A stretch of 64,000 bases of DNA from an uncultured delta proteobacterium. Its GTDB lineage: Bacteria > Myxococcota_A > Polyangia > Fen-1088. The position numbers and the translations under genes are program-made. The first letter of the stretch is position 1. Each line of letters starts with the position of its first letter. This document shows, piece by piece, positions 12,344 through 29,357 of the stretch. The stretch is taken from positions 2,720,001 through 2,784,000 of the forward strand of contig CAVYGB010000008.1 in NCBI GenBank assembly GCA_963767925.1, read 5' to 3'. The notes under the pieces were generated by a model. That model saw only the letters and a list, made by a program, of their open reading frames with translations, ran no database searches and was not told the origin of the DNA.

Positions 12344-12380
12344 CGGGCTCTCCTTGGGTAGTGCTTTCTACTCGCGACGG

Positions 12381-12408
12381 TACACGGAGGACCCCGGTCC
12401 TTTGTTCC
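12381..12408 (-). promoter_or_regulatory. ECF-type promoter for the BSP peptidase gene
   Basis: GGAAC-N17-CGTGTA on the minus strand, 38 nt before ATG 12343. Confidence 0.7.
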
Positions 12409-12454
12409 AGATCGTCTGCCGACTCCGCCGCACCGGGCCGGCGGGCGCTCGGCC

Positions 12455-12481
12455 GGAACAAACTGGCCCCCGATCCGTGTA
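12455..12481 (+). promoter_or_regulatory. ECF-type autoregulatory promoter
   Basis: GGAAC-N16-CGTGTA, 11 nt before ATG 12493. Confidence 0.72.
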
Positions 12482-12492
12482 ATTCGCCAGGC

Positions 12493-13086
12493 ATGGACTG
12501 GCCCGTGGTCACACCGCAGAGGTCCGACGAGCGCGCCGACCTCGACGAGCTGACCCTGGCCCGCGCCCAGCGCGGCGACCGGGACGCGCGCTCCGCCCTC
12601 ATCTCCCGCTATCAGCGTCCGGTCTTCGCCCTGCTCTCCCGCATGCTCAGCCGGCAGCCGACCCTCGTCGAGGACATGGCCCAGGAGACCTTCCTGCGGG
12701 TGTTGCGGGCCCTGCCCACCTACGACGCCCGCGGTCCCGCCCGGCTCGGCACCTGGATCCTGACCATCGCCACCCGCCTGGCGCTCGATCATTTCCGCCG
12801 GCGGCCCGACCACCTCCAGGATCTGGAGGCGGCTGGCGCCATCCCGGCGGCTCTGCCCCGCCCCGATCAAGGCGTGGATCGCCGAGCCCTGGCCCTCGAG
12901 CTGCTGCGGGCGGTGGAGGAGCTGCGGGCGCCCTTCCGGGCGGCTTTCCTGCTGCGCGAGGTGCACGACCTGAGCTACGAGGAGATCGCGAACGTGCTCG
13001 AGATCGACATCGGCACCGTCAAGTCGCGGCTGTCGCGGGCGCGGCGCGCGCTGCAGGGCGCCCTGGCCGAGATGCACGAGGCGTGA
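12493..13086 (+). CDS. ECF RNA polymerase sigma factor
   Basis: EDMAQETFLRV, TWILTIATR, LSYEEIA..L.I.IGTVKSRLSRAR. Confidence 0.93.
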   Translation: MDWPVVTPQRSDERADLDELTLARAQRGDRDARSALISRYQRPVFALLSRMLSRQPTLVEDMAQETFLRVLRALPTYDARGPARLGTWILTIATRLALDHFRRRPDHLQDLEAAGAIPAALPRPDQGVDRRALALELLRAVEELRAPFRAAFLLREVHDLSYEEIANVLEIDIGTVKSRLSRARRALQGALAEMHEA

Positions 13087-13101
13087 GGGCAGGCGGGAGA
13101 C

Positions 13102-14421
13102 ATGGCGGGTGAGAACATCGTCGATGAGCTATGGCCGGTGCTCGATCCACCGGCCGACTTCGGCCTGCGGGTGCTCGACGCGCTCGAGAAGCTGCCCGCG
13201 CGGGAGCCGCTCGGCGGCGCGCCCCCCCAAGGCCACACCGCCCCGGCGCGCGCGCGCCGGCGGGTGACCGGCGGCCGGCTGGCCTGGCTGGCAGCGGGGG
13301 TCTGCGCCGGGGCGCTGGGCGCCGCCGGCCTGGTCCAGCTCTGGCCTGCCGCCGGGACGCCACCGGATCCGGCCACCTCGTCCGGTCATCTCATCGCCGA
13401 CATCCGCCAGACCTTGCCCATCGGGGACCGGGGGCTGGCGGTTGTCGAGCGGGGGGCCGAGCTGGGCTGGTTCGTGGTGGCCGGCAACCCCCGGGTCGAT
13501 CAGCCCCGGGGCAGCGTGTTTTACCGGATCGACAGGGGCGGGCCGTTCGCGGTGGCCACTCCGGTGGGCGACGTGCGGGTCACCGGCACCTGCTTCCGGG
13601 TGTCGGTCGAGCCCGACCTGGACGACCGCCCCAGCGTGGTGGTGCTGGTCGAGGTGCTCGAAGGCTCGGTGCTCCTGGCCGGCGAGCGCGGCCAGGTCAC
13701 GCTGAACGCCGGAGAAAGAGGGCGGATGTCCCGCTACGCCCCGCCCCGGCGGCTGGATCCGGCGGACGGCCCGGCCGCCCGCCGCCGCCCCGAAGTGGAG
13801 ACCCGCGTGCGCCAGCTCGAGCAGGCGCTGGCCGAGACCCGCAAGGCGGCGGCCGAGGACGACCCGCCTCGTGACAAGTACTACGACCTCACGCCCGACG
13901 ACCTGCGGGCCCTCGCCCGCCGCTGCGAGATGCGGTACTACCTGCCCCGGCACGTGACCTCCCTCGACGCGCCCACCCTGGACGACGCGCCGGGGTTGAC
14001 CGCCGAGCAGCGGAGCGCCGTCCTCCGGCTCATGGAGGAGCAGCGGTCGCACTACATCGCCACGCTCCAGGCCCTGTACGCCGAGGTGACGGGCGATCGG
14101 GCCATCGCCGGCCGGCTGGCCCCCAAGAGCCTGCAGGAGGACCTCTTCGCCAAGCTCGACCCCCAGGAGCTCAAGGAGGCCCGCCGCCGGATCCTCGAGG
14201 AATGGGCCCAGGGCGGGCCGCTGCCGGCGCGAGGGCCCCGGGGTCCGGCCGAGCGGTTCATGCGCCTCGTGTCGGGAGCGGGCGACGGGTTCTTCCAGAA
14301 GGTCGTCGACCTGGTCGGGCCGGAGCGGGCCCGCCAGATCCGCGACAGGACCACCAGCGACATCCTCTCGTTTTCGCCCGCCTTCGAATGTGGACGTCCG
14401 TCGCCACCCGCCGGCCGCTGA
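13102..14421 (+). CDS. FecR-domain membrane anti-sigma factor
   Basis: Directly after the ECF gene; single TM; FAVATPVGDVRVTGTCFRV and VEVLEGSV FecR-like strands. Confidence 0.75.
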   Translation: MAGENIVDELWPVLDPPADFGLRVLDALEKLPAREPLGGAPPQGHTAPARARRRVTGGRLAWLAAGVCAGALGAAGLVQLWPAAGTPPDPATSSGHLIADIRQTLPIGDRGLAVVERGAELGWFVVAGNPRVDQPRGSVFYRIDRGGPFAVATPVGDVRVTGTCFRVSVEPDLDDRPSVVVLVEVLEGSVLLAGERGQVTLNAGERGRMSRYAPPRRLDPADGPAARRRPEVETRVRQLEQALAETRKAAAEDDPPRDKYYDLTPDDLRALARRCEMRYYLPRHVTSLDAPTLDDAPGLTAEQRSAVLRLMEEQRSHYIATLQALYAEVTGDRAIAGRLAPKSLQEDLFAKLDPQELKEARRRILEEWAQGGPLPARGPRGPAERFMRLVSGAGDGFFQKVVDLVGPERARQIRDRTTSDILSFSPAFECGRPSPPAGR

Positions 14422-14449
14422 GCGAGAAAAATGCGACCATGGGTGCCAG

Positions 14450-15850
14450 ATGGCACCCCGCAGACATCGGCTCATCGAGATCGACTGGCCCCGGCTCGAC
14501 CCGGCGCCCCGCCCCCCGGTGGCGCCCGCCGCCGAATTCCGCCGCCGGATCGAGGCGGCCCGGGCGGGCATGGAGGCGCGCGGCCTGACCCACCTGGTTG
14601 TCTATGGCGACCGCGAGCACTTCGCCAACCTGGCCCACCTGACCAACTTCGACCCCCGTTACGAGGAAGCGCTGCTCGTGCTGACGCAGGCTCAGCCGCC
14701 CCTCGTGCTGGTGGGCAACGAGTGCGAGAACTACCTGCCGATCAGCCCCCTTTACCAGGAGGGGTCGCTGCGCAAGGAGCGCTACCAGCCGTTTTCGCTG
14801 CCCGACCAGCCACGCGAGCACAGCCGCCTGCTGCGCACCATCCTGCAAGACGAGGGGATCGGGGCGGGCGCGCGGGTCGGCTGCGTCGGCTGGAAGGTCT
14901 TCTCCGAGCGCGAGCATCCGGGGGCCCGCCACGCCATCGAGCTGCCCGCCTTCATCGTCGATACCCTGCGCGACCTCTGTGGCCACGAGGCGGTCGTCAA
15001 CAGCACCGACCTGTTCATCCGCGCCGACGGGGGCCTGCGGACCAGCGCCTCGGTCTGGGACATCGCCCTCTGTGAATACGCCAACGTGATCGCCTCGGAG
15101 GGCGTCCGCCGCATCCTGTTTCACATCGAGGAGGGGCGTCGCGACGACGAGCTGGCCACCCACGTCCAGTACGACGGCATCCCCCTGGGGGCCCACATGA
15201 CCGTGCGCACCGGGCAGACCATGATCTCGCTGTCCAGCCCCTCGGGCGCCGTGGTCCGCCGGGGCAACCGCTTCTCCTGCAGCCTCTGCTTCCGGGGGGC
15301 CAACGTCTGCCGCGCCGGCTGGGTCGCCGCCAGCGCCGCCGATCTGCCGCCGGCCGCCCAGGACTACGTGCCCGCCTTCGCCGGCCCCTACTTCGAGGCC
15401 ATGGCCGCCTGGTACCGGAAGCTGGAGATCGGCACCGCCGCCGGGATCCCGGCGGCGGTCATCGCCGAGCGCCTCCCGGCCAACTTCGGCGTCTTCCTCA
15501 ACCCCGGCCACCTCACCCACCTCGACGAGTGGCTCTGCTCCCCCTTTTACGCCGGCTCCACCCTCCCGCTCCGCTCGGGCATGATCATCCAGTCCGACGT
15601 CATCCCCTCGTCGCCGACCTATTACTCCTCGCGCATGGAGGAGGGCCTGGTCCTCGCCGACTCCAGCTTGCGGCAGGCGCTCGCCGTGACCTTCCCCGAC
15701 CTCCTCACCCGCTGCCAGGCCCGCCGCGACTTCATGACGGAGGTCCTGAACCTCGAGCTGCCCGACGACCTGCTGCCGCTCTCCAACATCCCCGCCCTGG
15801 TCCCCCCGTTCCTCCTGCAGCCCGGCCAGGTGCTGGCCCTCGAGCCTTGA
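14450..15850 (+). CDS. Creatinase/Xaa-Pro aminopeptidase-like (M24 fold) protein
   Basis: VVYGDREHFANLAHLTNFDPRYEEAL, LNPGHLTHLDEW, SRMEEG. Confidence 0.65.
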   Translation: MAPRRHRLIEIDWPRLDPAPRPPVAPAAEFRRRIEAARAGMEARGLTHLVVYGDREHFANLAHLTNFDPRYEEALLVLTQAQPPLVLVGNECENYLPISPLYQEGSLRKERYQPFSLPDQPREHSRLLRTILQDEGIGAGARVGCVGWKVFSEREHPGARHAIELPAFIVDTLRDLCGHEAVVNSTDLFIRADGGLRTSASVWDIALCEYANVIASEGVRRILFHIEEGRRDDELATHVQYDGIPLGAHMTVRTGQTMISLSSPSGAVVRRGNRFSCSLCFRGANVCRAGWVAASAADLPPAAQDYVPAFAGPYFEAMAAWYRKLEIGTAAGIPAAVIAERLPANFGVFLNPGHLTHLDEWLCSPFYAGSTLPLRSGMIIQSDVIPSSPTYYSSRMEEGLVLADSSLRQALAVTFPDLLTRCQARRDFMTEVLNLELPDDLLPLSNIPALVPPFLLQPGQVLALEP

Positions 15851-15865
15851 CCGGGACGCGCCCGC

Positions 15866-16635
15866 TCAGGCGCGGCGGACCTCGTCGATTGTCGCGTTCT
15901 TCACCGCGTAGGGAAACGGCGGGTCGCCGATGCGGGCCGCGCCAAACGCGCCCGACCGGGCCAGCGCCACCAGCGCGGCGGGGACCCGGTAGCCCTTGGC
16001 CTCGATCCGGGCCAGCGCGCGGACACAGGCCGCGGTCGGCGAAAGGCCCTGCCGCATCAGCTCCACCGCGTGAGCCGCCGGGGCAAACCGCATCATGACG
16101 TCGCCGTTGCCGGTCGCCGCCACACCGCCGACGTCGTTGTCGACGTAGGCCCCCGCCCCCGGGACGGCGACGTCCCCCACCCGCCCCTTGATCTTGAACC
16201 CCAGCCCGCTGGTCGAGATCCCCACGCAGAGATCTCCCGCCCGATCGATCGCCACCATGCCGATGGTGTCGTGGTTTCCCTCGCTCCAGCTCAGGGAGCG
16301 CTTCGGGTCGGCCTTCCAGGCCTCCCACCGGCTGCGCGCCTTCGCGGTCAACAGGGAAGCCGGCTCCTCCTGGAAGCCGACCTTGCGGGCAGCCCGCCGA
16401 AGCCGACGCTGAGGTTGTCCGGGTCCAGCTCCACCAGGTTCACCCCCCGCTCGACCGCGTCGAGCGCGCTGCCCCCGGCGGCCAGCGCCTTCCAGGCCTC
16501 CGCGTTGGCCGCCTGCCCGAACGCCCAGGTGCTGATCACCGCCGGCACCACCCGCTCGCTCCGGCCCCGGCAGGCCATCCCGGCGCCCAGGCTGGCCGCC
16601 GCCCCGAAAAATCGCCTCCGTGTCAGCGTGATCAT
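15866..16635 (-). pseudogene. Tat-exported N4-(beta-N-acetylglucosaminyl)-L-asparaginase, disrupted by an internal deletion and frameshift
   Basis: TRRRFF Tat signal, ALDAVERG...SVGFGGLP joined out of frame to ARKVGFQEE..LLT; HDTIG autocleavage site, STSG, GRVGD, ATGNGD. Confidence 0.8.
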
Positions 16636-16684
16636 GCTGGTCTCCTCTCGGGTCCTGCTCGCGGGTGGCGGCGCCCGGCCTCCT

Positions 16685-19033
16685 TCAGGGCAGGGTGAAG
16701 GCCACGACCTGCGACCCGGCCGCTACCGCCACGTATTGCCGGCCGTCGAGCTGGTAGGTCATGGGGGACGCCTTCCAGGCGGCGTTGAGATGAAAATGCC
16801 AGAGCGGACGCCCCGATCGAGCGTCTACCGCGGCGAACGCCCCGCTGTCGTCCCCGAAGAACACGAGGCCCCCCGCGGTCGACAGCACGCCGCCCCAGGT
16901 GTCGGCGGGTCCGATCTGGGGATACTCCCAGGCGATGCGGCCGGTCCGGATGTCGATCGCGCGCAGGACCTTCCGGGGCACCTCGTCGGCGACCCGGCGG
17001 GTGCCGCCGCCGTAGAACGACTTGCCCGGCTCGAACCAGGCCGAGGACTGGTAGTAGATCGTGCACTTCTCCAGGGCCATCACGTAATAGAGGCCGAGCC
17101 CGGGGTGAAACGCGGTCGACATCCAGTTGGTGGCCCCCTCGACGGCGGGGCAGCTCTTGGTGCCCTGGGGCGTGGGGTCGTTGTCGGGCAGGAGCTTGGG
17201 CCGCCCATCGGGGCCGATGCCGCTCGCCCAGGTGAGCTTCTCGACGAAGGGTCTGGCCAGCAGCAGCTCGCCCTTCAGGCGATCGAGCAGGTAGAAGAAG
17301 CCGTTGCGGTTGGCCTGGGCCAGCAGCTTGCGCGGGCGGCCTCCGAAGGTGGCGTCGATCAGCATCGGGGTCTGGGCGGCGTCCCAGTCGTGCAGATCGT
17401 GGGGAGTGTACTGGTAATACCAGCGGAGCTTGCCGGTAGCGGGGTCGAGGGCGACGACCGAGTTCGAGTAGAGGTTGTCGCCCTTGCGCTCCTCCCCGTT
17501 GTAGTCGGGGCAGGGATTGCCGGTGGTCCAGTAGAGGAGGTCGGCCTGGGGATCGTAGGTCCCGGTCAACCAGGGCGCCGCGCAGCCGTACTGGATCGCC
17601 CGCCCGACCCAGGTCTCGGACAGCGGCTCGCCCGGGGCGGGCATGGTCCAGAAGCGCCACACCCGCTCGCCGGTGGAGGCCCGGTGGGCCGAGACGAGCC
17701 CGCGCGCCCCCTCGTCTCCACCGGAGGTGCCGGTGATGACGAGGTCCTTGACCACCAGGGGGGCCGAGGTGGTGCCGTAGTGCTGCTTGTAGTCGGCCAC
17801 CTCCACGTCCCAGAGCAGCCGGCCGGTGGCCCGGTCGAGGGCGATGAGGTGGGCGTGGTCGGTCACCATGAACAGCCGGTCGCCGAGCAGGGCCATCCCG
17901 CGGTTGATGCCGCCGGCGGCGTCGCCGATCACCCCCTTGGTGAGCGGGCGGGAGTAATGCCAGATCTGCCGGCCGGTGCGGGGGTCGAGGGCGAGGGCCT
18001 GGTTCGCGGCGGTCACGTACATCACGCCGTCGGCGACCAGCGGGGTCACCTCCAGGCGCCGGCCGTTGGGGACGGGGAAGATCCAGCGGGGGGCCAGGCG
18101 CGCGACGTTGGCCTTGTTTATCGCCTGCAGGGGGCTGTGGCGGTTGCCGCCGAGCTGGCCGTGGTAGGTGGGCCACTCCCCGGGCCGTGGGCGCGCCACC
18201 TGGGCGAAGGCGTCTGCCGCCGTAGCAGCGGCGCCGCCCGGGGCGGCCGCCACCGCGGGCGCGCCGTCGAGGCGGCTCAGGTAAGCCAGCAGGTCGCGGG
18301 TCTCCTCGGGCGTCGCCGACAGCGCGGGCATCAGCGAGCCGGGCTCGCGCACCTGCCGGCGGATCTGCCCCCGCGGGGTCAACACGGGCCGGCCCTCCAG
18401 GCTCACCACCTGGACGTCGTAGTTGCTCTCGTTCTTGAGCAGCCCGCGCACCCGGCGCCCGTCGCGCAGCTCGAGGGTCACGACGCCGTAGCCCGGCTGC
18501 TTGCGGGCGCCCGGCTGGCGCAGGGCCTGCTCGATGCGGCGCAGGCCGCGCTCGCGGCCCACCCGCGACAGATCCGGGGCCAGCAACCCGCCCCGACCGC
18601 CGACCGCGTGGCAGCGGGCGCAGTCGCCCTTGCCGAAGAAGAAGCGCTCCCCGCTGCGGGCGTCGCCCGGCGGCGGGTGGGCGATGGCGGGCGCGATGAG
18701 GGCGGCGACGTAGCCGGCGAGGGCGTCGAGGTCGGCGTCGGGCAGCGGAAAGGCCGGCATGCCGGCGCCGGGGATGCCGTCGCGGATCAGGAGGCGCAGG
18801 TCGGGCCGCGCCCGCGAGCGCCCGCTGCGCGACTCGACGATGCCGGGCCCCTTCTCCCCGCCCTCGCCATCGCCGCCGTGGCAGGGGGCGCAGCCAGCTT
18901 CATAGAGCCGCCGGCCCGGGTCCGACGGCTGCGCCCCGGCCGGCGCGGTCCCGAGCGAGGCGATGAGCGAGGCGACGAGAATATCGGCGACTAAAACGAT
19001 ACAGCAGCGCACCACCGCGCGACCATCACCCAA
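16685..19033 (-). CDS. PQQ-dependent dehydrogenase-family beta-propeller fused to two N-terminal cytochrome c domains
   Basis: CAPCH and CARCH haem motifs; WPTYHG, GNPCP, TPHDLHDWDA, ANRNGFFY, ASPMTY...GRQYVAV; exact start uncertain. Confidence 0.88.
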   Translation of the reverse strand: MGDGRAVVRCCIVLVADILVASLIASLGTAPAGAQPSDPGRRLYEAGCAPCHGGDGEGGEKGPGIVESRSGRSRARPDLRLLIRDGIPGAGMPAFPLPDADLDALAGYVAALIAPAIAHPPPGDARSGERFFFGKGDCARCHAVGGRGGLLAPDLSRVGRERGLRRIEQALRQPGARKQPGYGVVTLELRDGRRVRGLLKNESNYDVQVVSLEGRPVLTPRGQIRRQVREPGSLMPALSATPEETRDLLAYLSRLDGAPAVAAAPGGAAATAADAFAQVARPRPGEWPTYHGQLGGNRHSPLQAINKANVARLAPRWIFPVPNGRRLEVTPLVADGVMYVTAANQALALDPRTGRQIWHYSRPLTKGVIGDAAGGINRGMALLGDRLFMVTDHAHLIALDRATGRLLWDVEVADYKQHYGTTSAPLVVKDLVITGTSGGDEGARGLVSAHRASTGERVWRFWTMPAPGEPLSETWVGRAIQYGCAAPWLTGTYDPQADLLYWTTGNPCPDYNGEERKGDNLYSNSVVALDPATGKLRWYYQYTPHDLHDWDAAQTPMLIDATFGGRPRKLLAQANRNGFFYLLDRLKGELLLARPFVEKLTWASGIGPDGRPKLLPDNDPTPQGTKSCPAVEGATNWMSTAFHPGLGLYYVMALEKCTIYYQSSAWFEPGKSFYGGGTRRVADEVPRKVLRAIDIRTGRIAWEYPQIGPADTWGGVLSTAGGLVFFGDDSGAFAAVDARSGRPLWHFHLNAAWKASPMTYQLDGRQYVAVAAGSQVVAFTLP

Positions 19034-19688
19034 CCCCCCCGGTAAAGTCCATGCCGACCTTGTCGGGCGCGGGCGAGCCGCTCCAGAACCCGGCGGGGAT
19101 CTGCCCGTGCAGGAAGGTGATGGTGTTGGGGGCGCCGGGACGCGAGTCGAGGCTGGCCGGGGTGGGTCCCTCCTTCACCCCTTCGCCCGGCGACCAGCCG
19201 GGGAGCTCACCGGGGCGCAAGCCGTGCAGGCCGCTCTGCCAAGCGCCGATCCGGAAGGTGTGCCCGGCGGCGCGGCACCCGAAGAAGCGCGTCCAGGCGC
19301 GGGCGAAGGTTTGCCCCCGGGCGGTGCCGAAGGTCTCGCAGGTCCGGAACCACCAGAGGGCCTCGCCCCCGGGCGCCAGCCGATCGCGCACGCGCGCCAG
19401 CCGGTCGTGGAGGGGGTGGCCGGGGGCCAGCGCCCGCGCGTCGAGGGTCTCGTCGCCGACGCGCGCCAGCCCCCAGCGCCCGTGCCCCCAGAACTGGATC
19501 TCGTCGATGGGAGCCTCCACCGCGGCCAGCCAATCCAGCGCCTCGCCCCAGCTCGCCACGCCGCGGCTCGCGTCGAGCCGGCCGAGCGCCCGGTAAAGAT
19601 GCCGTCCCGCGCCCCAGACCTGGCTGAGCCCGGGCAAAAACCAGGGACGGGGGCAGCTCCGGTCGTAGATCATCAGGCGCAACGCCAT
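19026..19688 (-). CDS. Conserved hypothetical protein
   Basis: Plausible codon usage; IQFWGHG, WWFRTCETF; TATAAT 6 nt before the ATG. Confidence 0.65.
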   Translation of the reverse strand: MALRLMIYDRSCPRPWFLPGLSQVWGAGRHLYRALGRLDASRGVASWGEALDWLAAVEAPIDEIQFWGHGRWGLARVGDETLDARALAPGHPLHDRLARVRDRLAPGGEALWWFRTCETFGTARGQTFARAWTRFFGCRAAGHTFRIGAWQSGLHGLRPGELPGWSPGEGVKEGPTPASLDSRPGAPNTITFLHGQIPAGFWSGSPAPDKVGMDFTGGVG

Positions 19689-19714
19689 CGCAGCATTATA
19701 GGTAAACTGCGCGC

Positions 19715-20339
19715 GTGAAGCGGACGCGAACCCTCTCCCGGCCGCTGGTGGCCGTCGCTGGCCTCCTGGTCGCCGGGGTGTTCCTGGGCGTCTACCTGCT
19801 CGGGGGAGACCCCAGCCAGGCCGACCCCGTTACCGCCGACCCCGCGCGCGCCTCCGGAGATCCGGCGGTCGCCCGCCACCGTCCCTTCCGCAACCCACGG
19901 GTGCCCCGGCTGCGGGTCGCGCCGCCGCCGGGCGGAGAAGCCGCTCCCCAGGTCTCGGTCCCCGCCCTGGTGCCACCGGCCTCGGCCGCGACCCGGCTCG
20001 CGCCCCTGCTGTCGCAATACCAGAGCTTCCTCGAGCAGACCGAGCTCGACGCCTCGGCGGGGCGGGAGGTGCGGCGCATCCTCCACCAGGCGCAGGCGTC
20101 GATCCTGCGCGCCGAGGAGCTCGCCGCCCAGAAGCTCGGCCGAGCCGGGCAACCGCCAGGCCCGCCGCCAGCGGGCCCTGCTCGAGGTCGAGCGGGCGCT
20201 ACAGGACAACATCCGCCCCGAGGAGGCCGAGCGGGTGCTCGCCCACAGCTTCGTGCAGGAGCTGCTGGCCGGCAACGAGCCGCTGTTCGAGGTGAACGAC
20301 CGCGGGGTGACGAACCTGCGCGAGGACATCCGCCCATGA
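19715..20339 (+). CDS. Hypothetical membrane-anchored protein, frameshifted near 20138
   Basis: N-terminal TM; the +1 frame continues AEPGNRQARRQRALLEVERAL...EDIRP* to 20339. Confidence 0.55.
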
Positions 20340-20354
20340 GCACCACCCCTGCCC

Positions 20355-21545
20355 TCAGCGGCCCAGCAACTCCTGGCGGGTCTGGGCGAACATCTCGACG
20401 GCGAAGGTGAGGTCGTCGCGGGAGTGGGCCGCCGAGACCTGCACGCGGATGCGGGCCTTTCCGAGGGGGACAACCGGGTAGCTGAACCCGACCGCGTACA
20501 CCCCCCGGTCGAGCAGCCGGTCGGCGAAGCGGGTGGCCAGGCTGGCGTCGCCCAGCATGATGGGCACGATCGGGTGAATCCCCGGCCGGATGTCGAAGCC
20601 CCGGTCGGTCATGGCCTGGCGGAAGAAGCGCGTGTTGTCCGCGAGCGTGTCGCGCAGCTCCCGGCTCTCCGACACAAGCTCGATCGCCCGGATCGAGGCG
20701 GCGGCGATGGGTGGAGCCAGGGTGTTGGAGAACAGATAGGGCCGCGAGCGCTGGCGCAGGGTCTCGACGATCTCCTTGCGCCCGCTGGTGTAGCCGCCGC
20801 TGGCGCCCCCCAGGGCCTTGCCCAGCGTGCCGGTCAAGAGGTCGACCCGCGCGCTGACGCCGTGGTGCTCGGGCGTGCCCCGACCAGTCGGGCCCACGAA
20901 GCCGACGGCGTGAGAGTCGTCGACCATCAGCAGGGCGTCGTGGCGGTCGGCGAGATCGCAGATGCCGGGCAGGTCGGCCAGGTCGCCGTCCATCGAGAAC
21001 ACGCCGTCGGTGGCGATCATGCGGAAGCGGGCGTCGGCGCTCTCCTTCAGCTTCTGCTCGAGGTCGGCCAGGTCGGAGTGGCGGTAGCGCAGGCGGCGCG
21101 CCTTGCACAGGCGGACGCCGTCGATGATGCTGGCGTGGTTGAGCTCGTCGGAGATGAGGGCGTCTTCGGCCCCCAGCAAAGTCTCGAACAGCCCCGTGTT
21201 GGCGTCGAAGCAGGAGCCGTAGAGGATGGTGTCCTCGGTCCCAAGGAAGGCGCTGAGGCGACCTTCCAGCTCCTTGTGCACGCCCTGGGTGCCGCAGATG
21301 AACCGGACCGACGACAGGCCGTACCCCCAGCGGGCCAGCCCCTCGGCCGCCGCCCGGGCCAGGGCCGGGTGCTGGGCCAGCCCCAGATAGTTGTTGGCGC
21401 ACATGACGAGCACGGGAGGCGACCCCTCCCCCAGCCGCACCCGGGTGCCCTGGGGCGTGTCGATGGTCCGTTCGTTCTTGTAGACCCCCTCGCCGCGCAT
21501 GCGCGCGAGCTCGGCGGTGAGCGTCTCCTTGATTCGACCGTACAC
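20355..21545 (-). CDS. kbl: Glycine C-acetyltransferase (2-amino-3-ketobutyrate CoA ligase)
   Basis: [47 protein letters not shown]. Confidence 0.96.
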
Positions 21546-21594
21546 CGCGGCTCCTTTCTTCCTGGGCCCGCAGCGGAGGCGGGCCCGGGCCGGC

Positions 21595-22623
21595 TCAGAC
21601 CATCCAGTCGAGCACCACCCGCCCCGACTTGCCCGCCAGCATCGCTTCGAACCCGAGGTTGAAGTCGGTGTAGGGCATGCGGTGGGTGATGACCGGCTTG
21701 ATGTCCAGGCCACACTCCAGCATCACGTTCATCTTGTACCAGGTTTCGTACATCTCCCGGCCGTAGATCCCCTTGATGGTCAACATCGAGAAGATCACCG
21801 TGTTCCAGTCGATGGCCATCTCCCCCTCGGGGATGCCCAGCATGGCGATCTTGCCCCCGTGGGCCATGTTGGCCAGCATGTCGCGGAAGCCGCTGGGGTT
21901 GCCCGACATCTCGAGCCCCACGTCGAACCCCTCGTGCATCTTCAGCTCGCGCTGGACGTCCTTGAGGCTCTGCTTCTGGGGATCGACGGCCCTCGTGACG
22001 CCCACCTTGCGGGCCAGCTCGAGCCGGTAGGCGTTGACGTCGGTGATGACGACGTGGCGGGCGCCGGCGTGGCGGGCGACCGCCGCCGCCATGATCCCGA
22101 TGGGGCCCGCGCCGGTGATCAACACGTCCTCACCGAGCAGGGGGAACGACAGCGCCGTGTGCACGGCGTTGCCGAACGGATCGAAGATGGCGGCCACGTC
22201 CTTGTCGATGCCGGGCGGGTGGACCCAGACGTTGGTCATCGGGAGCGCCAGGTACTCCGCGAAGGCCCCGGGGCGGTCGACGCCGATCCCCTTGGTGCCG
22301 GCGCACAGGTGGCGGCGGCCGGCCAGGCAGTTGCGGCAGCGGCCACAGACCACGTGGCCCTCGCCGCTCACGATCTGCCCGGGCACGAAGTCCACGACGT
22401 TGGTGCCGACCTCGACGATCTCGCCGACGAACTCGTGACCCACCACCATGGGGACCGGGATGGTCTTCCGGGCCCAGCTGTCCCAGCGGAAGATGTGGAC
22501 GTCGGTGCCGCAGATGCCGGTCCGGTGCACCCGGATCAGCACGTCGTTGATCCCCGGCTTCGGGGCGGGCACGTCCTCGAGCCACAACCCGGGCTCTGCC
22601 CGGCTCTTTACCAGTGCTTTCAC
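21595..22623 (-). CDS. tdh: L-threonine 3-dehydrogenase
   Basis: [36 protein letters not shown]. Confidence 0.96.
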
Positions 22624-22952
22624 CTGACTCCCCCTTCTTCCTGGTGGTCTTGCTGGGTCCCGCTGCTTGCTCACCCTGGGGTCCCCTACCTCATCGGCGG
22701 GGTTGAGGTTGTACGCGAATTGTGGACCGAAGTTCCGACAAAAGCGCCCCCCGGCCGCGCCGTGCCGCCGCGGGGGGGCGCCCGGAATGCCTTCAGGTTT
22801 CGCCAGCATGGGCGACCGGCGGCGCCCGGGCGGGCGCCTGCGACGCGATGTTTCCGGCATCGGGGCTCGCCGCTATTGAACTTTGGTCAATGCGCGCGCA
22901 GAATCGCCGCCAGGTAAACGACGTGGATCGCCGGCTGACCTGGGAGGAACCG

Positions 22953-24060
22953 ATGCGCACTATCAGACTCGACCGCAGAGCAGGCACAGCGTTCTTGTTC
23001 GGCGCCGCTCTGGCGCTCTCTGGCTGCGGCTCGGCCGCCAACTCGGAGACTCCGGGCGGCGGGGGGGCCGGCGGCGCGCCGGCCGGCAGCGCGGGCAGCG
23101 GTGGATCCGCCCCCGCCCCCACCGCGGGCGCTCCCGCGGCCGGCAGCCCCGGCTCCGAGGGCAGCGGCGGCTCCGCGGGCTCCGCCGGCAGCCCGGCGCG
23201 GATGGACGCCGCCGTCCGGGGGCCCGACAGCGGCGCTGCCCCCGACGCGGCCGTTGCGCCCGGCGGCTGTCCGACCCGGCCCAACCTCACCCTGGCGGTC
23301 CACATCGTCATGAACGCCACCTGGCCGGGCACCACCTCCGCCGCCACCGGCACCGACAAGATCCACGTCTGGAACCTCACCAAGGTCAACGTGACCGGCA
23401 ACGAGCTGGCCGGTAACCAGACCCGCTCCTGCGGCACGGTGTTGCCCCCCTTCTCGCTGACCGCGGGCGGCCGGCTCGTCACCGGCGGCGAACGCGTCCA
23501 GATCGAGATCCCGTTTTCGATCTGGGAGGCGCCAACCGTACCCCGGCTGAACAGCCGGGGACGCCTGGGGGGCTGGAACCCCGGCAGCAGCTTCGCCATC
23601 GACGGGACGGTGGCCCTGATCGGGCTCACGATGGACGACCCCATGGCGGCCTGGCCCGCCTCGTACACCGGCATCCAGGCGGTGGACGCCGACGGCGACG
23701 GCAAGCCGGGCTTCACCGCGGTCCCCCGCTCGGGCGGCGGCTTCGTGCAGCCCCCCACCGGCCTGGGGCTGTTCGGCTCGGCCCCCTCGGCCGATCAGGT
23801 CTACATCGCCTCCCGATCGGTGATCGGCCTCGACGGCACGGTTCACCTCTTGCAGCGACATTTCGGGCGAGGCCCGGGTCGTCACCTTCGACAGCCACGC
23901 GGTCGGCTGCCATGTCCGCAACGGCGGCGAGTGCAGCGCCAACCAGACCGACTTCGTCGACCAGAACCGCACCATCTACCGGATCACCGGCGGGACCTTC
24001 ACCGCCAAGCAAGTCCCGGACGACGCCTCCTGCGCCGACGTCCGGACCGCCGTGCCTTGA
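22953..24060 (+). CDS. Myxobacterial-type lipoprotein, frameshifted near 23840
   Basis: LSGC lipobox, Gly/Ser linker, DADGDGKPG Ca-binding-like motif; the +1 frame continues FTSCSDISG...VRTAVP*. Confidence 0.7.
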
Positions 24061-24085
24061 TCACCCCGAAAGGAACCACCTCCCG

Positions 24086-25861
24086 ATGACCAGCCCAGCC
24101 CGGGGCGGCAGCTTCCTCGTCGAGGACTGCGCGCCCGAGGACGTCTTCACGCCCGAGGACCTCAGCGAGGAGCAGCGCCTCATCGGCGAGTCCTGCGCCC
24201 GGTGGATGCAGCAGGACGTCTTGCCCCGTCTGCCCCGGATGCTGGCCCTGGACTACGAGGTCATCCGGGCGGCCCTGCGCAAGGCCGGCGAGCAGGGCCT
24301 GCTCGGGATCGAGATCCCCGTCGCCTACGGGGGTCTCGGCCTCGACAAGGTCACCGCCACCGTCGCCGGCGAGCAGGTGTCGCGCGACGCCAGCATGGCC
24401 ACGACCTTCATGGCCCACACCGGCATCGGCACCTTGCCGATCGTCTATTTCGGCAGCGAGGCCCAGAAGCGCAAGTACCTGCCCAAGCTGGCCAGCGGCG
24501 AGTGGATCTCCTCCTACTCGCTGTCGGAGGCGGCCTCCGCCTCCGACGCCCTCAACGCCAAGACCCGGGCGGTGCTCTCGGCCGACGGCAAGAGCTGGGT
24601 CCTCAACGGCGAGAAGATGTGGCTCACAAACTCCGGCTTCGCCGACCTCTACATCATCTTCGCCAAGGTCGACGGCAAGGACTTCTCCGCCTTCATCATC
24701 GAGAAGGGGACCCCGGGGGTGAGCCTGGGGGCGGAGGAGCACAAGCTGGGCATCAAGGGGTCCTCCACCCGGCCCCTCATCCTGGCCGACGCGGTCATCC
24801 CGCGGGAGAACCTGCTCGGCGAGATCGGCAAGGGCCACAAGATCGCCTTCAATGTCCTCAACCTGGGCCGCTTCAAGCTGGGGGCGGGCGTGACCGGGGG
24901 GGCCAAGCTGGTCATCGCCGAGGCGGTCGAATACGCCCGCAACCGCACCGCCTTCGGCAAGCCGATCACCGACTTCGGCCTCATCCGCCACAAGATCGGG
25001 GAGATGGCCATCCTGGCCTACGTGGCCGAGTCCCTGATCTACCGGATCGCCGGCAACATCGACCGCAACCTGGCCGACCTCGATCCCGAGGACACCACCG
25101 GCCAGCTCAAGCGGATCGAGGAGTACGACGTCGAGTGCTCGATGGCCAAGGTCTGGTGCTCCGAGGTGCTCGACTACGTTGTCGACGAGAACGTGCAGAT
25201 CTTCGGGGGCGCCGGCTTCGTCGAGGACTACCCCGCCGAGCGCCACTACCGGGACGCCCGCATCAACCGCATCTACGAGGGGACCAACGAGATCAACCGC
25301 CTGCTGGTGCCGGGGCGGCTGCTCCGCCGGGCCCTCAAGCAGGAGCTGCCGATCTTCGAGAAGGCGATGGCCCTGATGAGCGAGCTGTCCCCCGACGGCG
25401 GGGTGCGGCGCGAGAGCCCCGCCGGGTTCCTGGCGGCCGAGTCCGAGATGGCGGCCGGCGCCAAGAAGGCGGCCCTCATGTGCATCGGGCTGGCCGCCCA
25501 GAAGTACGGCGAGGCGCTCTCCCACGAGCAGGAGATCCTCGGGCACTTCGCCGACATCGCCATGGAGACCTACGCCCTCGAGAGCGCCCTGTTGCGGACG
25601 CGCAAACGGGCGGTTGCCAGGGGGGAAGACCAGACCCGGATCCAGGAGGCGGCCGTGCGCTGCTTCGCCCAGGATGCCCTCGATCGCGTGGAGACCTCGG
25701 CCCGCCGCCTGCTGTCCGCCCTGGCCGAGGGGGAGCCTCTGCGCGGGTACCTGGGAGCGCTCCAGCGCTTCACCCGCCGGGACCCGGCCAACACGGTGGC
25801 GCTGCGGCGCCAGGTGGCGAGCGCGGCCATCGAGGCCGGAAGGTATCCCCTGTCCGATTGA
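24086..25861 (+). CDS. Acyl-CoA dehydrogenase (FadE/VLCAD-like)
   Basis: YSLSEAASASDA, LNGEKMWLTN, EEHKLGIKGSST, QIFGGAG, RINRIYEGTNEINR. Confidence 0.93.
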   Translation: MTSPARGGSFLVEDCAPEDVFTPEDLSEEQRLIGESCARWMQQDVLPRLPRMLALDYEVIRAALRKAGEQGLLGIEIPVAYGGLGLDKVTATVAGEQVSRDASMATTFMAHTGIGTLPIVYFGSEAQKRKYLPKLASGEWISSYSLSEAASASDALNAKTRAVLSADGKSWVLNGEKMWLTNSGFADLYIIFAKVDGKDFSAFIIEKGTPGVSLGAEEHKLGIKGSSTRPLILADAVIPRENLLGEIGKGHKIAFNVLNLGRFKLGAGVTGGAKLVIAEAVEYARNRTAFGKPITDFGLIRHKIGEMAILAYVAESLIYRIAGNIDRNLADLDPEDTTGQLKRIEEYDVECSMAKVWCSEVLDYVVDENVQIFGGAGFVEDYPAERHYRDARINRIYEGTNEINRLLVPGRLLRRALKQELPIFEKAMALMSELSPDGGVRRESPAGFLAAESEMAAGAKKAALMCIGLAAQKYGEALSHEQEILGHFADIAMETYALESALLRTRKRAVARGEDQTRIQEAAVRCFAQDALDRVETSARRLLSALAEGEPLRGYLGALQRFTRRDPANTVALRRQVASAAIEAGRYPLSD

Positions 25862-25866
25862 GCGCG

Positions 25867-25893
25867 GGAACCTTCCCGGAGGGCGGTCGTGTA
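25867..25893 (+). promoter_or_regulatory. ECF-type promoter for the TonB-dependent receptor
   Basis: GGAAC-N16-CGTGTA, with the same -35/-10 as the ECF autopromoter. Confidence 0.7.
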
Positions 25894-25956
25894 ACCGGGC
25901 GGGTGTTTTCTAGGGTACCCTCCCTGGGTCTCGTGCCCCCGGAAAGGACCGCCCGC

Positions 25957-28701
25957 ATGGCGTGGACCGCGCGTTCGATGGTGGGAGTAGCGATGCTGCT
26001 GGCGCCGCTCGCGATGGGAATCCCCCGCGCTGCCGCGCAGAGCGGACAGAACGGGTCGATCCTCGGTTACGTGATGGACCAGAGCGGCACGCCCCTCAAG
26101 GGCGTCCGCGTGCTGGCCGGCTCGGCCACCCAGATCGGCGGCACCCGGACGGTCTACACCAACGAGGAGGGCGCCTTCCGCTTCCTGGCCTTGCAGCCGG
26201 GGCGCTTCGAGGTGCGGGCCTCCGCCCCCCGGCTCAAGACCGTGCTGCTCAAGGACGTCCGGGTGGGCATCGGCGCGCCGGCCGAGGTCAACCTGGTGAT
26301 GGAGGTCGAGACCGCGGCCGAGGAGGTGCAGGTCGTCGAGCGGGCCCCCCTCATCAGCACCAGCTCGGCCAGCGTCAAGGAGGTGTTCGACCTCGAAATG
26401 GTCGAGAGCCTGCCTCACGGCAGCCGCGACAGCGTGCACTCGCAGGTGGTCAACGACGTGGCCGGGGGCATCAACGGACGCATCCGGGGCGGGGCCAGCA
26501 ACCAGACCATCTACACCCAGGACGGCTTCGACATCCGGGGGCAGGTGCCGACCCTCAAGGCCTCCGCGGCCTACGAGGTCAACACGGGCGGCTACGGGGT
26601 CGACAACCCCATGGCTTCGGGCGGGTCGATCAACATGGTGACGAAGTCCGGCTCGAACCGCTTCGAGCTCGAGCTCAACGCCACCGCCGACAGCAACCGG
26701 ATGCGCTTCTTCACCGACGGCACCGACGCGGCCGCCCCTACCTACCTCTACTTCCTCAACCCGCTCATCTCGGGGCCCATCATCAAGGACAAGCTCTGGT
26801 TCCACTTCAACACCGAGGTGTATTTCCAGCAGAACGGCCGGGACCCCGACGTCGAGGGCTATCTGCCCGACCCGGCCACCTACCGCAAGTGGGTCCCCAA
26901 GGGCACCCTCAAGGTCACCTGGCAGGTCAGCCCCCGCAACAAGCTGCAGAGCCTCACCAACTTCGACTTCCCCAACGAGTGGAACCGGCGGGGCGAGCTG
27001 GGGGTCGACGCCCTGGCCCAGGAGAGCCGCCGGGGCCAGCGCGTGTTCCAGGGGCTGATCTGGGAGTCGCTGCTGAAGGACGACGTCATCCTCCGCAGCC
27101 AGATCGGCTTCACCTCGGTCCCCATGCACATCTACCCGGCCCGCTGTGACGACGAGCCGGTGGCCTGCGACCACACCCCGGCGGTCATCCAGCGCTTTCC
27201 CAAGCGGCAAGATCTGCAGAACAACAGCAACCACCAGCGCGACGACCTCTACGCCCTGCAGTTCCAGAACCGGATCGACTGGCTGCTGTCGAGCCGGCGC
27301 TTCGGCGAGCACGCCCTGCAGCTCAAGGACAACTTCTACAGCGAGCAGGACATCCGGCGGGTCTCCCGCCCCGGTGACGCCATCATCGAGCTCAACGGAT
27401 CGGTCCCCGACGCCCGAACGACCTACTACTCCAACGATCCCCGCCTCGAGCCCGAGCGCTTCGGCTGGAACGTCACCAGCACGACCATCGCCCGCCACTT
27501 CGCCACCCTGAGCGACTCCTGGCGCCCCAGCCGCTTCCTCACCGTGACGCCCGCCCTGTCGCACGTCTGGGCCACCGGCTCGAACAGCGCCGGCGACCAT
27601 CTGGTCGCCCAGAACACCTTCGCCCCGGCGGCGGCGCTGGCCTGGGACGCCACCCACGACGGGCGCACCGTGGTGCGGGCCAGCTACAACCACTACGTCG
27701 ACCTCGACGTGGGCGCCCTCTCTCGCCACACGGTGGGGGGCCTCACCCAGATGCGCTGCCGCTGGAACGAGGCGACCCAGGCCTTCGACGGGGCCTGCGA
27801 ATACAGCGGCGGCGCCAGCCGCAACACCTTCGGGCTGGCCTGCGGGCCCACCGGGTTCGACGCCCAGGGGCTGCCCTGCCGGGAGGCGCTGAAGATCCCC
27901 CGCACCATCGAATACACCGCGGGGGCGGAGCGGGAGATCGTCGATGGGGTGGCGCTGGGCCTGGACCTGTTTTACCGGACCTTCCGCCACCTCTACGAGA
28001 CGCAGGAGACCAACCGGGTCTGGTCGAGCACCGGCGCCGGCCTGGTGCCCACCGGCGGCTACCGCAACGGCCGGCGCGAGACCATCAGCGACCTCGGCAC
28101 GCCGGCGGCCGCCCGGCGCCTCTACCGGGGCGCCACGCTCGGGCTGACCAAGCGCGAAGGGCGCCTCAAGATGAAGGCCTCCTACACGCTGTCGAAGCTC
28201 GAGGGCAGCGTCCTCGACGGCACCAACAACGCCTGGGGCGACATCGCCCCCCGCGACGTCTTCCTCTACGGGGACCTGGCCGACGATCACCGGCACGAGC
28301 TCAAGGCCAGCACCACCTATCAGATCTCCCCCTGGCTGTCGGCCGGCCTCCGTTACCGCTATTACTCTGGCCGCCCTTACAACCGCCTGTACCGCAACGA
28401 CGTCACCGGCGCCTTCGACCTCTACCGAGCGCGGGTGGGGGTCAACCCCGGCACCAACATCAACGATCCCGGGGACGATCGCGCCCTCCGCTACCCCGAT
28501 CTGCAGGACGTCAACGTGCAACTCCGGGCCAGCCTGCTCCCCTTGATCGGGCAGCGGCTCGACCTCTACGTCGACGTGCTGAACGTGCTGGGCCTCCGCA
28601 CCACCACCCTGGTGGGGCAGGAGGACGGACGCGACTTCGATGTGGTGCGGGGCCGGCTCGAGCCCTTCCGGATCCGGCTGGGCCTCAATTACCGCTATTG
28701 A
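25957..28701 (+). CDS. Oar-like TonB-dependent receptor with carboxypeptidase-regulatory-like N-domain
   Basis: Signal peptide, GYVMDQSGTPLKG, GGSINMVTKSGSN plug motif, terminal RLGLNYRY. Confidence 0.88.
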   Translation: MAWTARSMVGVAMLLAPLAMGIPRAAAQSGQNGSILGYVMDQSGTPLKGVRVLAGSATQIGGTRTVYTNEEGAFRFLALQPGRFEVRASAPRLKTVLLKDVRVGIGAPAEVNLVMEVETAAEEVQVVERAPLISTSSASVKEVFDLEMVESLPHGSRDSVHSQVVNDVAGGINGRIRGGASNQTIYTQDGFDIRGQVPTLKASAAYEVNTGGYGVDNPMASGGSINMVTKSGSNRFELELNATADSNRMRFFTDGTDAAAPTYLYFLNPLISGPIIKDKLWFHFNTEVYFQQNGRDPDVEGYLPDPATYRKWVPKGTLKVTWQVSPRNKLQSLTNFDFPNEWNRRGELGVDALAQESRRGQRVFQGLIWESLLKDDVILRSQIGFTSVPMHIYPARCDDEPVACDHTPAVIQRFPKRQDLQNNSNHQRDDLYALQFQNRIDWLLSSRRFGEHALQLKDNFYSEQDIRRVSRPGDAIIELNGSVPDARTTYYSNDPRLEPERFGWNVTSTTIARHFATLSDSWRPSRFLTVTPALSHVWATGSNSAGDHLVAQNTFAPAAALAWDATHDGRTVVRASYNHYVDLDVGALSRHTVGGLTQMRCRWNEATQAFDGACEYSGGASRNTFGLACGPTGFDAQGLPCREALKIPRTIEYTAGAEREIVDGVALGLDLFYRTFRHLYETQETNRVWSSTGAGLVPTGGYRNGRRETISDLGTPAAARRLYRGATLGLTKREGRLKMKASYTLSKLEGSVLDGTNNAWGDIAPRDVFLYGDLADDHRHELKASTTYQISPWLSAGLRYRYYSGRPYNRLYRNDVTGAFDLYRARVGVNPGTNINDPGDDRALRYPDLQDVNVQLRASLLPLIGQRLDLYVDVLNVLGLRTTTLVGQEDGRDFDVVRGRLEPFRIRLGLNYRY

Positions 28702-28776
28702 CTACTCGTCGAATAGTGGCGAGAACCGCTCCTCGGCGGTGACCCGTTCGGTGAGCGACAGGTGGAGCGAGGCGCG

Positions 28777-28803
28777 GGAACAAAACCCAGGTGGCGGCGT
28801 AAA
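28777..28803 (+). promoter_or_regulatory. ECF-type promoter for the four-helix-bundle gene
   Basis: GGAAC-N16-CGTAAA; GCGCGGGAAC context identical to that at 25862; AAA after GGAAC as at 12455 and 12408. Confidence 0.55.
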
Positions 28804-28819
28804 ACGGACAAAGGTTCAC

Positions 28820-29161
28820 ATGGCCGCCAATCCGCCGGAGCTGGACGACGTCACTCTACGCTTGGGCGACGCTCTTGCGCGGAGAATGCCACGCGGGTAT
28901 GCGACGTAGCAGGACCAGCTTCGGCGCGCGCTGTTGTCGGCATACCTGGGCATCGCCGAGGCATCCAGCCGAACGGGCGCCGACAGGATCTCACGGTTCC
29001 GCACCGCCAGAGGCGAAGCGTCCGAGGCGGCAGCCGCCTTGGAGGCGGTTGCAATCCTGGGACTTGCTCCCGATACCGAGATCGAAGCGGTGATGTCTCT
29101 GCTCGACCGGCTGTGCGCGATGCTCACTCGGCTCGCCGGCATGCACCGCCACCAACCCTGA
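28820..29161 (+). pseudogene. Four-helix-bundle protein (bAvd-like / 23S rRNA IVP family) with in-frame TAG
   Basis: MPRGYAT*QDQLRRALLSAYLGIAEA...RFRTARGEASEAAAALE...LCAMLTRL; TAG at 28907-28909; visibly less GC-biased codons. Confidence 0.8.
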
Positions 29162-29175
29162 TGACTGCCGCGGCT

Positions 29176-29357
29176 GTCGTGGTCGTGCTCGTGTGCGAGC
29201 GCGTGTTCGAGTTCGTGTCCGTGTGTGGTGAGCGTGTTCGGCCCGCGGGCCTCGGCTCGCGTGATTTACGCGCACCGAGAGCCGCCTGGCCGCTCAACGC
29301 TCGCCCCACACGAACTCGAACACGAACAAGCGCTCGACCACGCCCACGAGCACGCGT
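29176..29357. repeat. ~180-nt imperfect inverted repeat built from NNCG(T/A)G hexamers
   Basis: Perfect 17-bp IR 29202-29218/29308-29324; 10-bp IR 29184-29193/29345-29354; 7-bp IR 29196-29202/29330-29336; inner stems closing on GCGTGATTTACGC. Confidence 0.88.

Follow-up and report, generated by a model that had tools for sequence, protein, structure and literature searches.

Which genes are controlled by the extracytoplasmic function (ECF) sigma factor encoded in this stretch of Myxococcota DNA, and why should a bAvd-like four-helix-bundle gene be among them? The stretch (the window; 64,000 nucleotides, G000:C8:2720001-2784000) belongs to the genome of an uncultured bacterium (G000; 9.34 Mb, 71% G+C, 13 contigs, 84% complete), and the comparison drew on a sister genome of the same genus (G001) and a genome of another genus (G012). 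The first-pass annotation had read four GGAAC-N16/17-CGT sites in the window as the promoters of one regulon, comprising a BSP-family peptidase, the ECF gene, an Oar-like TonB-dependent receptor, and the bAvd-like gene. All four sites are present where it placed them, and a fifth oriented intergenic match, at 22736..22713 on the minus strand, had escaped it. The five sites are as follows.

12381..12408, minus strand: predicted promoter for the BSP peptidase, GGAACAAA-N-TCCGTGTA with a spacer of 17 (boxes 12408..12384), 40 nt before the ATG at 12343; the full site, minus strand 12408..12381, is GGAACAAAGGACCGGGGTCCTCCGTGTA.
12455..12481, plus strand: predicted autoregulatory promoter of the ECF-A operon, GGAACAAA-N-TCCGTGTA with a spacer of 16 (boxes 12455-12478), 14 nt before the ECF ATG; full site GGAACAAACTGGCCCCCGATCCGTGTA.
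22709..22736, minus strand: fifth candidate ECF-type promoter, GGAACTTCG-N-CGTACAAC (boxes 22736..22713), 89 nt before the start of a gene for a Zn-dependent alcohol dehydrogenase (Zn-ADH).
25867..25893, plus strand: predicted promoter of the receptor gene, GGGAACCTTCC-N-CGTGTAACC with a spacer of 16 and CGTGTAA (boxes 25867-25890), 66 nt before the ATG at 25957; full site GGAACCTTCCCGGAGGGCGGTCGTGTA.
28777..28803, plus strand: site 4, predicted promoter of an ECF-B relic, GGGAACAAAA-N-CGTAAAACG with a spacer of 16 and CGTAAAA (boxes 28777-28800), 19 nt before the ATG at 28820; full site GGAACAAAACCCAGGTGGCGGCGTAAA.

Overall, our analysis yields a well-supported prediction of an ordinary ECF regulon with one twist. 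We consider it probable, though well short of certain, that the window holds the locus of an ECF sigma factor (ECF-A) with five promoters of its family within 16.4 kb, one of them being the orphaned promoter of a second ECF gene (ECF-B). The "unexpected" bAvd-like target would be a mobile-element fragment on the stump of this lost sigma paralogue. This reading is carried by four observations: that the sites exist, that they are conserved, that they are rare in the genome as a whole, and that a repeat has its junction here. The ECF gene is the first of three genes on the same strand.

12493..13086, plus strand: ECF sigma factor ECF-A, 197 aa, with matches to Sigma70_r2 (E=9e-18, residues 36-104) and Sigma70_r4_2 (E=5.1e-16, residues 135-187).
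13102..14421, plus strand: predicted single-pass membrane anti-sigma factor of 439 aa with a weak FecR-like outer domain; 15 nt separate its start from the stop codon of ECF-A.
14450..15850, plus strand: third operon gene, start uncertain, possibly for an M24/creatinase-like peptidase.

The ATG of the ECF gene lies at 12493 and not at 12495. ECF-A has regions 2 and 4, no region 3, and about 200 aa, and it is thus an ECF (group 4) sigma factor. Its best relatives of solved structure are E. coli RpoE (1or7; 1.5e-21), SigW (5wuq), and M. tuberculosis SigE. The suspicion that a paralogous ECF elsewhere in the genome might read the same sites was justified to the extent that three candidates exist (62, 60, and 51% identity to ECF-A).

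What promoter does this family recognize? A search of 41 genomes with the ECF protein gave matches at E<=1e-30 in eight, the best foreign match being 57% identical, and the same box pair recurs upstream of the homologues, including further homologues from Myxococcota. The pattern (G/C)GAAC-N16/17-xGx-RNAA is present in all 20 upstream regions of homologous ECF genes collected. From these 20 regions we built a two-block weight matrix (PWM2), trained on foreign genomes and two paralogues of the window's own genome, with no window site among them and two duplicate loci excluded. Its consensus is yyCgGGAACc ... CG(T/A)-G-(T/C/A)-A-A; the second A of the -10 tail occurs in 20/20 regions and the first in 16/20, although these genomes have a G+C content of about 70%. 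The way the matrix was built gives the -10 block some advantage, because the script that picked the sites preferred that tail among the few GGAAC candidates per region. PWM2 superseded a matrix of nine sites, which gave the ADH site a score of 7.2 and was replaced because its flanking columns were overfitted. With the same reservation about the site picker, the conservation of the box pair upstream of homologous ECF genes, which the first-pass annotation had proposed to check, holds in 20 regions; ECF-A has this family-conserved pair before its own gene, and its predicted autoregulation stands.

All four window sites, none of which entered PWM2, are among its 22 best matches in the genome. The receptor site (26.2) takes rank 2 and is the best untrained match, followed by site 4 (20.9, rank 5), the site of ECF-A itself (17.7, rank 18), and the BSP site (17.4, rank 22). 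Ranks 1 and 3 are the two training sites of this genome; rank 6 lies upstream of the untrained paralogue at C8:1774635 and is therefore a positive control. An order-3 Markov null model, run over 324 Mb of sequence, gave a maximum of 23.6, and the expectation per genome was 0 matches at 26.2 or above, 0.14 at 22.7, 0.95 at 20.9, 7.8 at 17.7, 9.2 at 17.4, and 101 at 13.0. The receptor site alone is significant genome-wide by its score. Altogether, 22 matches in the genome reach 17.4, of which 14 are intergenic, against an intergenic fraction of 16.9% (binomial p=1.2e-6), and 4 fall at 12000-29000 of the window, where 0.04 would be expected (Poisson p=1e-7). The promoter form of this ECF family is GGGAAC-N16/17-CG(T/A)G(T/C)AA and lies far above chance, and the reading of the four sites as ECF-type promoters, a prediction from sequence, is well supported.

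The short form of the motif behaves differently: enrichment over chance is clear for the extended form derived from the family and slight for the bare one, which is near chance. Bare GGAAC-N16/17-CGT has 9 matches in the window against 4.09 +/- 1.80 in shuffles, with at least 9 in 2 of 100 shuffles, and 624 matches in the genome against 472-490 in five order-3 Markov genomes. With 83% of the genome covered by our rough gene calling, 490 of the 624 fall in coding sequence, and just 35 are intergenic and aimed at a gene within 250 nt. Four of these 35 are inside the window, namely, the BSP, ECF, and receptor sites and the fifth one (22736..22713). Because the gene caller has no gene behind 28777, that site was classed as "other" and stays outside the 35.

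The genes behind the other sites are the following.

11357..12343, minus strand: peptidase of the BSP family (PF04450; Pfam E=1.9e-36), with a lipoprotein-like signal at its N terminus and a linker rich in Gly.
25957..28701, plus strand: Oar-like TonB-dependent receptor, 914 aa, with PF13620 CarboxypepD_reg (E=1.4e-14) and PF25183 OMP_b-brl_4 (E=1.4e-13).
21595..22623, minus strand: Zn-ADH (Pfam), first gene of a minus-strand cluster.

Matching ECF-type promoter sites before both the BSP and the receptor genes, as first proposed, are confirmed at 12381-12408 and 25867-25893. The BSP protein, a predicted zincin-like peptidase, matches PF04450 over the full length of the profile (positions 6-207 of 207) and has an HEVTH motif in its translation. 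The receptor combines the CarboxypepD_reg N-domain and the large outer-membrane barrel of Oar-like proteins, and no Plug domain is listed for it in the Pfam scan at E<=0.01. About 18 Oar-like paralogues are encoded in the genome; the site stands before the window receptor only, and 18 other rows score 10.6 or less. After the Zn-ADH gene, the cluster continues with genes for an aminotransferase, a pyrroloquinoline quinone (PQQ) dehydrogenase-cytochrome c (16685-19015, minus strand), and a split asparaginase.

The sister genome shows that the receptor and ADH sites have been kept. A 9.1-kb contig of G001 has, in this order, an acyl-CoA dehydrogenase gene, a site scoring 28.5, the receptor gene, a site scoring 21.5, a gene for a CotH/LamG lipoprotein, a further site, and an ECF gene. 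The dehydrogenase is 80.6% identical to that at 24086-25855 in the window and the receptor orthologue is 74.9% identical, against 55% or less for the approximately 18 paralogues; the CotH/LamG gene has no counterpart in the window. The ECF protein of this contig, whose gene is 2.8 kb from the receptor, is 57.8% identical to ECF-A. G000 and G001 have exactly the same two boxes in the receptor footprint, CGGGAACCTTCCC and CGTGTAACC, and the spacer and the remaining intergenic sequence have diverged, with insertions and deletions. The same holds on the ADH side, where CGGAACTTCG and CGTACAAC are identical and the spacer has diverged; the Zn-ADH orthologue is 90% identical, and G001 has a second site 52 nt further upstream. 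The region upstream of the BSP orthologue of G001 (72% identity) is cut by a contig end. This gene and that for the anti-sigma orthologue (62%) both stop at contig ends facing the expected place of ECF-A, a layout which fits the presence of both ECF paralogues in the genus without showing it. We rejected the idea that C87 and C747, two contigs of G001, adjoin each other on the side of the ADH gene, since the 1.5 kb upstream of the G001 Zn-ADH gene does not align to the window. In the more distant G012, a BSP homologue (55% identical) has GGAACaaa-N17-CGT 83 nt upstream, and a further site follows a second BSP homologue. The link to the peptidase and receptor was seen in no genome other than G000, G001, and, for BSP only, G012; within +/-10 kb of seven foreign ECF homologues, the autoregulatory site is the only ECF-type site scoring at least 14 outside the G001 contig.

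Why then does one of the best promoter matches in the genome precede a bAvd-like gene? The region around site 4 consists of two parts with different histories.

28777..28853, plus strand: probable ECF-B relic, 77 nt of unique sequence with the predicted promoter, the 5' untranslated region (UTR), the ATG at 28820, and codons for MAANPPELDDV.
28854..29430 (end approximate), plus strand: 3' fragment of a 1.6-kb repeat of an IS5-type insertion sequence (IS) plus a four-helix-bundle gene, with the bAvd-like open reading frame (ORF).

The repeat has more than 20 copies across the genome at 93-99% nucleotide identity, and the BLAST alignments break off at 28854. The window ORF becomes homologous to the remaining copies within codon 12. 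Left of the junction, those copies go on with sequence that is unrelated to that of the window and identical among themselves; it encodes the true N terminus of the four-helix-bundle protein, which the window lacks. A full repeat of about 1.6 kb (for example, C8:2215923-2217533) has an IS5-type transposase (DDE_Tnp_1, DUF4096) on the other strand, a 23S_rRNA_IVP four-helix-bundle ORF, and an internal inverted-repeat region. At least four copies are full, and the more than 20 partial copies share a common 3' end with many different 5' start points. The window copy is without the transposase and without the ORF's own N terminus, and the ORF from the ATG at 28820 runs into an in-frame TAG at 28907-28909, where other copies encode Leu. 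With this stop read as X, the fragment matches 23S_rRNA_IVP (PF05635) with 37.4 bits (cut-off 33.8) over residues 30-103 only; the part after the stop alone gives 26.1 bits. An Rfam scan of the full repeat returned a sub-threshold match to a plant microRNA only, which we dismissed.

The unique part resembles the 5' end of an ECF gene. The promoter and UTR of the relic align with those of the receptor-linked ECF gene of G001 (GGGAACAAAA..CGTAAAACG..GGTTCnCATGG), and the relic peptide carries the N-terminal signature of the ECF family, for which the consensus is ELDExTLARA. The motif [DE]LD[DE][VIL]TL occurs five times in 18.7 million residues of the six-frame translated genome, that is, in three ECF N termini, in the relic, and in one unrelated place. 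Its five-residue form lies wholly in unique sequence, with a probability of about 8e-5 of arising by chance in a peptide of 11 aa. Between 28700 and 32500 we found no credible remnant of the rest of an ECF gene or of an anti-sigma gene after the repeat (best E-values, 0.06-0.41). Taken together, site 4 likely served another ECF gene, ECF-B, as its autoregulatory promoter, and the body of that gene would have been lost in a rearrangement involving the repeat. As a designed regulon member, the bAvd-like gene has to be given up: what remains is a piece of an IS5-associated repeat, truncated and interrupted by a stop codon, and it is fused to a promoter and 11 initial codons that look like those of an ECF gene other than ECF-A. 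If site 4 marks an ECF-B relic, the receptor may belong ancestrally to the lost paralogue and not to the ECF at 12493.

We therefore propose the following model. ECF-A, which is RpoE/SigW-like and presumably autoregulated, would be cotranscribed with its FecR-like, single-pass anti-sigma factor, and the members of this family in Myxococcota would read GGGAAC-N16/17-CG(T/A)G(T/C)AA. Five such promoters would be present: that of ECF-A itself, the divergent one of the BSP gene, that of the receptor, the weaker and conserved one of the Zn-ADH cluster, and the orphaned autoregulatory promoter of ECF-B. The ECF-B gene would once have been located just downstream of the receptor gene, as an ECF gene still is in G001, and its coding sequence would have been replaced after codon 11 by the IS5-associated repeat fragment carrying the four-helix-bundle ORF. 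By analogy with established ECF systems, a signal from the envelope may inactivate the anti-sigma factor, upon which freed ECF-A would raise the expression of its own operon and of the peptidase. ECF-A might also read the receptor and ADH promoters after the loss of ECF-B, alone or with the three other paralogues.

Several points weigh against this model. Among the sequencing runs searched for this DNA, no RNA run turned out to contain it, and one DNA run contained a small share. The labels "intergenic" and "coding" depend on the rough gene caller with its 83% coverage. By score, the BSP and ECF-A sites are not significant, with 9.2 and 7.8 such matches expected per genome, so that their weight comes from position and clustering, and the ADH site reaches only 13.0, a score expected about 101 times per genome. 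The rank-4 match (22.7; C8:3152525-3152548, minus strand) lies between two plus-strand genes and is aimed at the 3' end of a convergent gene; since it points at no gene, high scores evidently arise in nonpromoter contexts, too. In the relic, BLAST counts the bases coding for the last two residues of ELDDVTL as part of the repeat. The receptor and ECF genes of G001 have a CotH gene between them, and the gene after the ECF gene is unlike the window's anti-sigma family at its visible first residues. The paralogy of ECF-A and ECF-B is presumed, because the ECF-A region of G001 is unassembled. Finally, three paralogous ECFs have a near-identical promoter consensus, and the receptor, ADH, and relic promoters are not assigned to ECF-A.

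As an observation apart, the plus-strand gene downstream of the rank-4 match encodes another Oar-like receptor, and that site could be antisense or a chance occurrence.

The alternative that survives best takes up the last of the points above. The receptor, relic, and ADH promoters could be read by one or more of the three paralogous ECFs (C8:183324, C8:1563058, and C8:1774635), or now be silent, leaving ECF-A with its own gene and BSP only. The promoter consensus is the same, with the paralogues' own sites at ranks 1, 3, and 6, and the ancestral neighbor of the receptor would be ECF-B and not ECF-A. In addition, the box pair of the receptor site, GGAACCTTCC/TCGTGTAACC, differs from that of the two sites at the ECF-A gene, which are both GGAACAAA/TCCGTGTA. 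However, these differences are within the spread of the family's own promoters, ECF-A is closest to the receptor-linked ECF of G001 (57.8% identity versus 55.6, 48.9, and 36.2%), and it is also nearest in position. We regard this alternative as rather unlikely, if still one to be taken seriously.

The original proposal, in which all four genes, with the bAvd-like one as a true target among them, form a designed "degrade and import" regulon under the ECF at 12493 and its anti-sigma factor, has the attraction that four sites within 16.4 kb of the ECF gene fit one consensus and that a BSP peptidase, an M24-like third gene (lead only), and a receptor make a common theme. It is quite improbable given that the bAvd-like ORF derives from a repeat of more than 20 copies, has lost its 5' part, and contains an in-frame TAG, that its first 11 codons and promoter resemble the 5' end of an ECF gene, and that the G001 receptor gene lies 2.8 kb from a different ECF copy. 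Chance occurrence of a short, GC-compatible motif would be in keeping with the many, mostly coding copies of the bare motif and with the 2 in 100 shuffles that equal the window, but it is very hard to reconcile with the scores, positions, and clustering under an independent matrix, with boxes kept in G001 between diverged spacers, and with a motif conserved upstream of 20 homologous ECF genes.

If ECF-A controls the window as our preferred model has it, how does the system compare with known ones? RpoE and SigW have consensus promoters with an AAC -35 and a CGT -10 element. ECF-A shares with RpoE/SigW/SigE-type factors the two regions, its own promoter of this AAC/CGT type, and an anti-sigma gene next in the operon. 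It differs in the -10 element, which in its family is extended to CG(T/A)G(T/C)AA, and the anti-sigma factor differs in its FecR-like outer domain and a C-terminal part of about 200 aa, for which no Pfam or PDB match was found. The FecR match itself has E=0.0021 and 18.9 bits against a Pfam cut-off of 24; among three homologous anti-sigma factors scanned, two are above this cut-off (28.7 and 27.9 bits) and one is below (20.8 bits). Homologous anti-sigma ORFs follow the ECF gene in the paralogous and related loci, and the partnership with ECF-A is predicted from this gene order.

A further difference from the RpoE/SigW/SigE type is the short leader. In 20 of 22 homologue rows (19 of 21 distinct loci, L019-L049), a start codon is possible only 9-16 nt past the CGT box, as it is at 14 nt in the window; the routine takes the first possible start, so that this figure is an upper bound on shortness. 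These distances suggest that the ECF mRNAs may be leaderless or near-leaderless.

The first-pass annotation had likened the system to FecI/FecR/FecA, with which it shares a TonB-dependent receptor behind a promoter of the sigma factor's type and perhaps, given the match below the cut-off, a FecR-family domain in the anti-sigma factor. FecI-type sigma factors are usually not autoregulated, whereas ECF-A is predicted to be, and it is RpoE-like. The receptor shows no N-terminal signaling domain in a Pfam scan of it and its G001 orthologue, which returned CarboxypepD_reg and the barrel only, and its gene is about 13 kb (12.9) from the intact ECF gene and adjoins the relic only. For these reasons (a receptor with no detected signaling domain, not adjacent, and an RpoE/SigW/SigE-like sigma), the analogy does not hold, and the window system would appear to work like a classical autoregulated ECF/anti-sigma pair. 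The canonical FecR-regulated sigma factors form the clade ECF239-243, according to Casas-Pastor et al. 2021 (PMC7826278).

For the receptor, Oar of Myxococcus xanthus offers a comparison. Oar is described (PMC6434023) as a TonB-dependent transporter on which secretion of the protease PopC depends. The window receptor has the same kind of CarboxypepD_reg N-domain and large barrel, a likeness at the level of domains, and its promoter is matched by that of a secreted-type peptidase. With Oar and PopC as a precedent, such a receptor could be an exporter instead of an importer; export of the BSP peptidase by it would be pure speculation. A bolder version of our model can also be offered, tentatively and as an unlikely one: two ECF paralogues with the same promoter code would once have bracketed a block of 17 kb, one of them being destroyed recently by the IS5-linked repeat. 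ECF-A might now drive the receptor promoter, the ADH/PQQ cluster, and a fused transcript of ECF stub and four-helix bundle, and the receptor and BSP peptidase might form an export pair like Oar and PopC. If true, the takeover of orphaned promoters by ECF-A would be a natural case of regulons merging through paralogue loss.

The repeat shares with IS5 elements and 23S rRNA intervening-sequence proteins the DDE_Tnp_1 and DUF4096 ORFs of the full copy and the 23S_rRNA_IVP match of the fragment. It differs in that a single unit of 1.6 kb unites the IS and the four-helix-bundle ORF, which move together, and in that many copies have a common 3' end and different 5' ends.

What does this locus add? 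It provides a promoter code derived from sequence, GGGAAC-N16/17-CG(T/A)GTAA, for an uncharacterized ECF family of uncultured Myxococcota, together with a small set of predicted targets, to which the BSP peptidase and a single receptor out of about 18 Oar-like ones belong and to which the ADH/PQQ cluster may be added. It also illustrates that a mobile element can leave a perfect-looking promoter before a gene that was never a target, a caution for reading regulons from motifs only. Our knowledge of how ECF systems work is unchanged by these findings. Literature searches turned up nothing on this ECF family or on the control of BSP peptidases by ECF factors, a negative limited to those searches, and an NCBIfam search of six proteins, in which the ECF query was out of frame, returned no family.

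The functional theme of the neighborhood is plausible as far as gene content can suggest one: a secreted peptidase, the M24-like third gene (lead only), the split asparaginase, the aminotransferase, and the adjoining pqq genes. The third operon gene at 14450..15850 has no Pfam match, and its features match the Creatinase_N/Peptidase_M24 Atlas clusters at 0.98, which we treat as a lead only. The Asparaginase_2 homologue at 15866-16635 (minus strand) is distributed over two ORFs, 16348-16635 (profile positions 27-68) and 15866-16351 (profile positions 152-288), and the gene is probably broken. A pqqA-E operon (8081-11238, minus strand) follows immediately after the BSP gene, and its pqqA (11238..11086) has the E-x3-Y motif. 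The 118-nt gap between the two showed no terminator-like site on the minus strand, and read-through from the ECF-type BSP promoter into pqqA-E is therefore possible.

In the paralogous locus L026 (C8:181325-185313), the ECF gene (62% identity) and an anti-sigma gene with a FecR domain are preceded by a gene for a secreted-type M28 peptidase. Here, too, a member of this ECF family is paired with a peptidase; the peptidase's own site, GGAACAAA-N13-CCGT, reaches only 11.9 with the nine-site matrix. About 150 nt upstream of the ADH-side ECF box, at about 22872-22892, lies an imperfect palindrome of 21 nt, CATTGACCAAAGTTCAATAGC, which is identical in G001 amid diverged surroundings and may be the operator of another regulator. 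Finally, an ORF of 250 aa in G001 aligns to the window in two frames, at 23307-23843 and 23839-24057 (plus strand), and one of the two genomes is frameshifted there.

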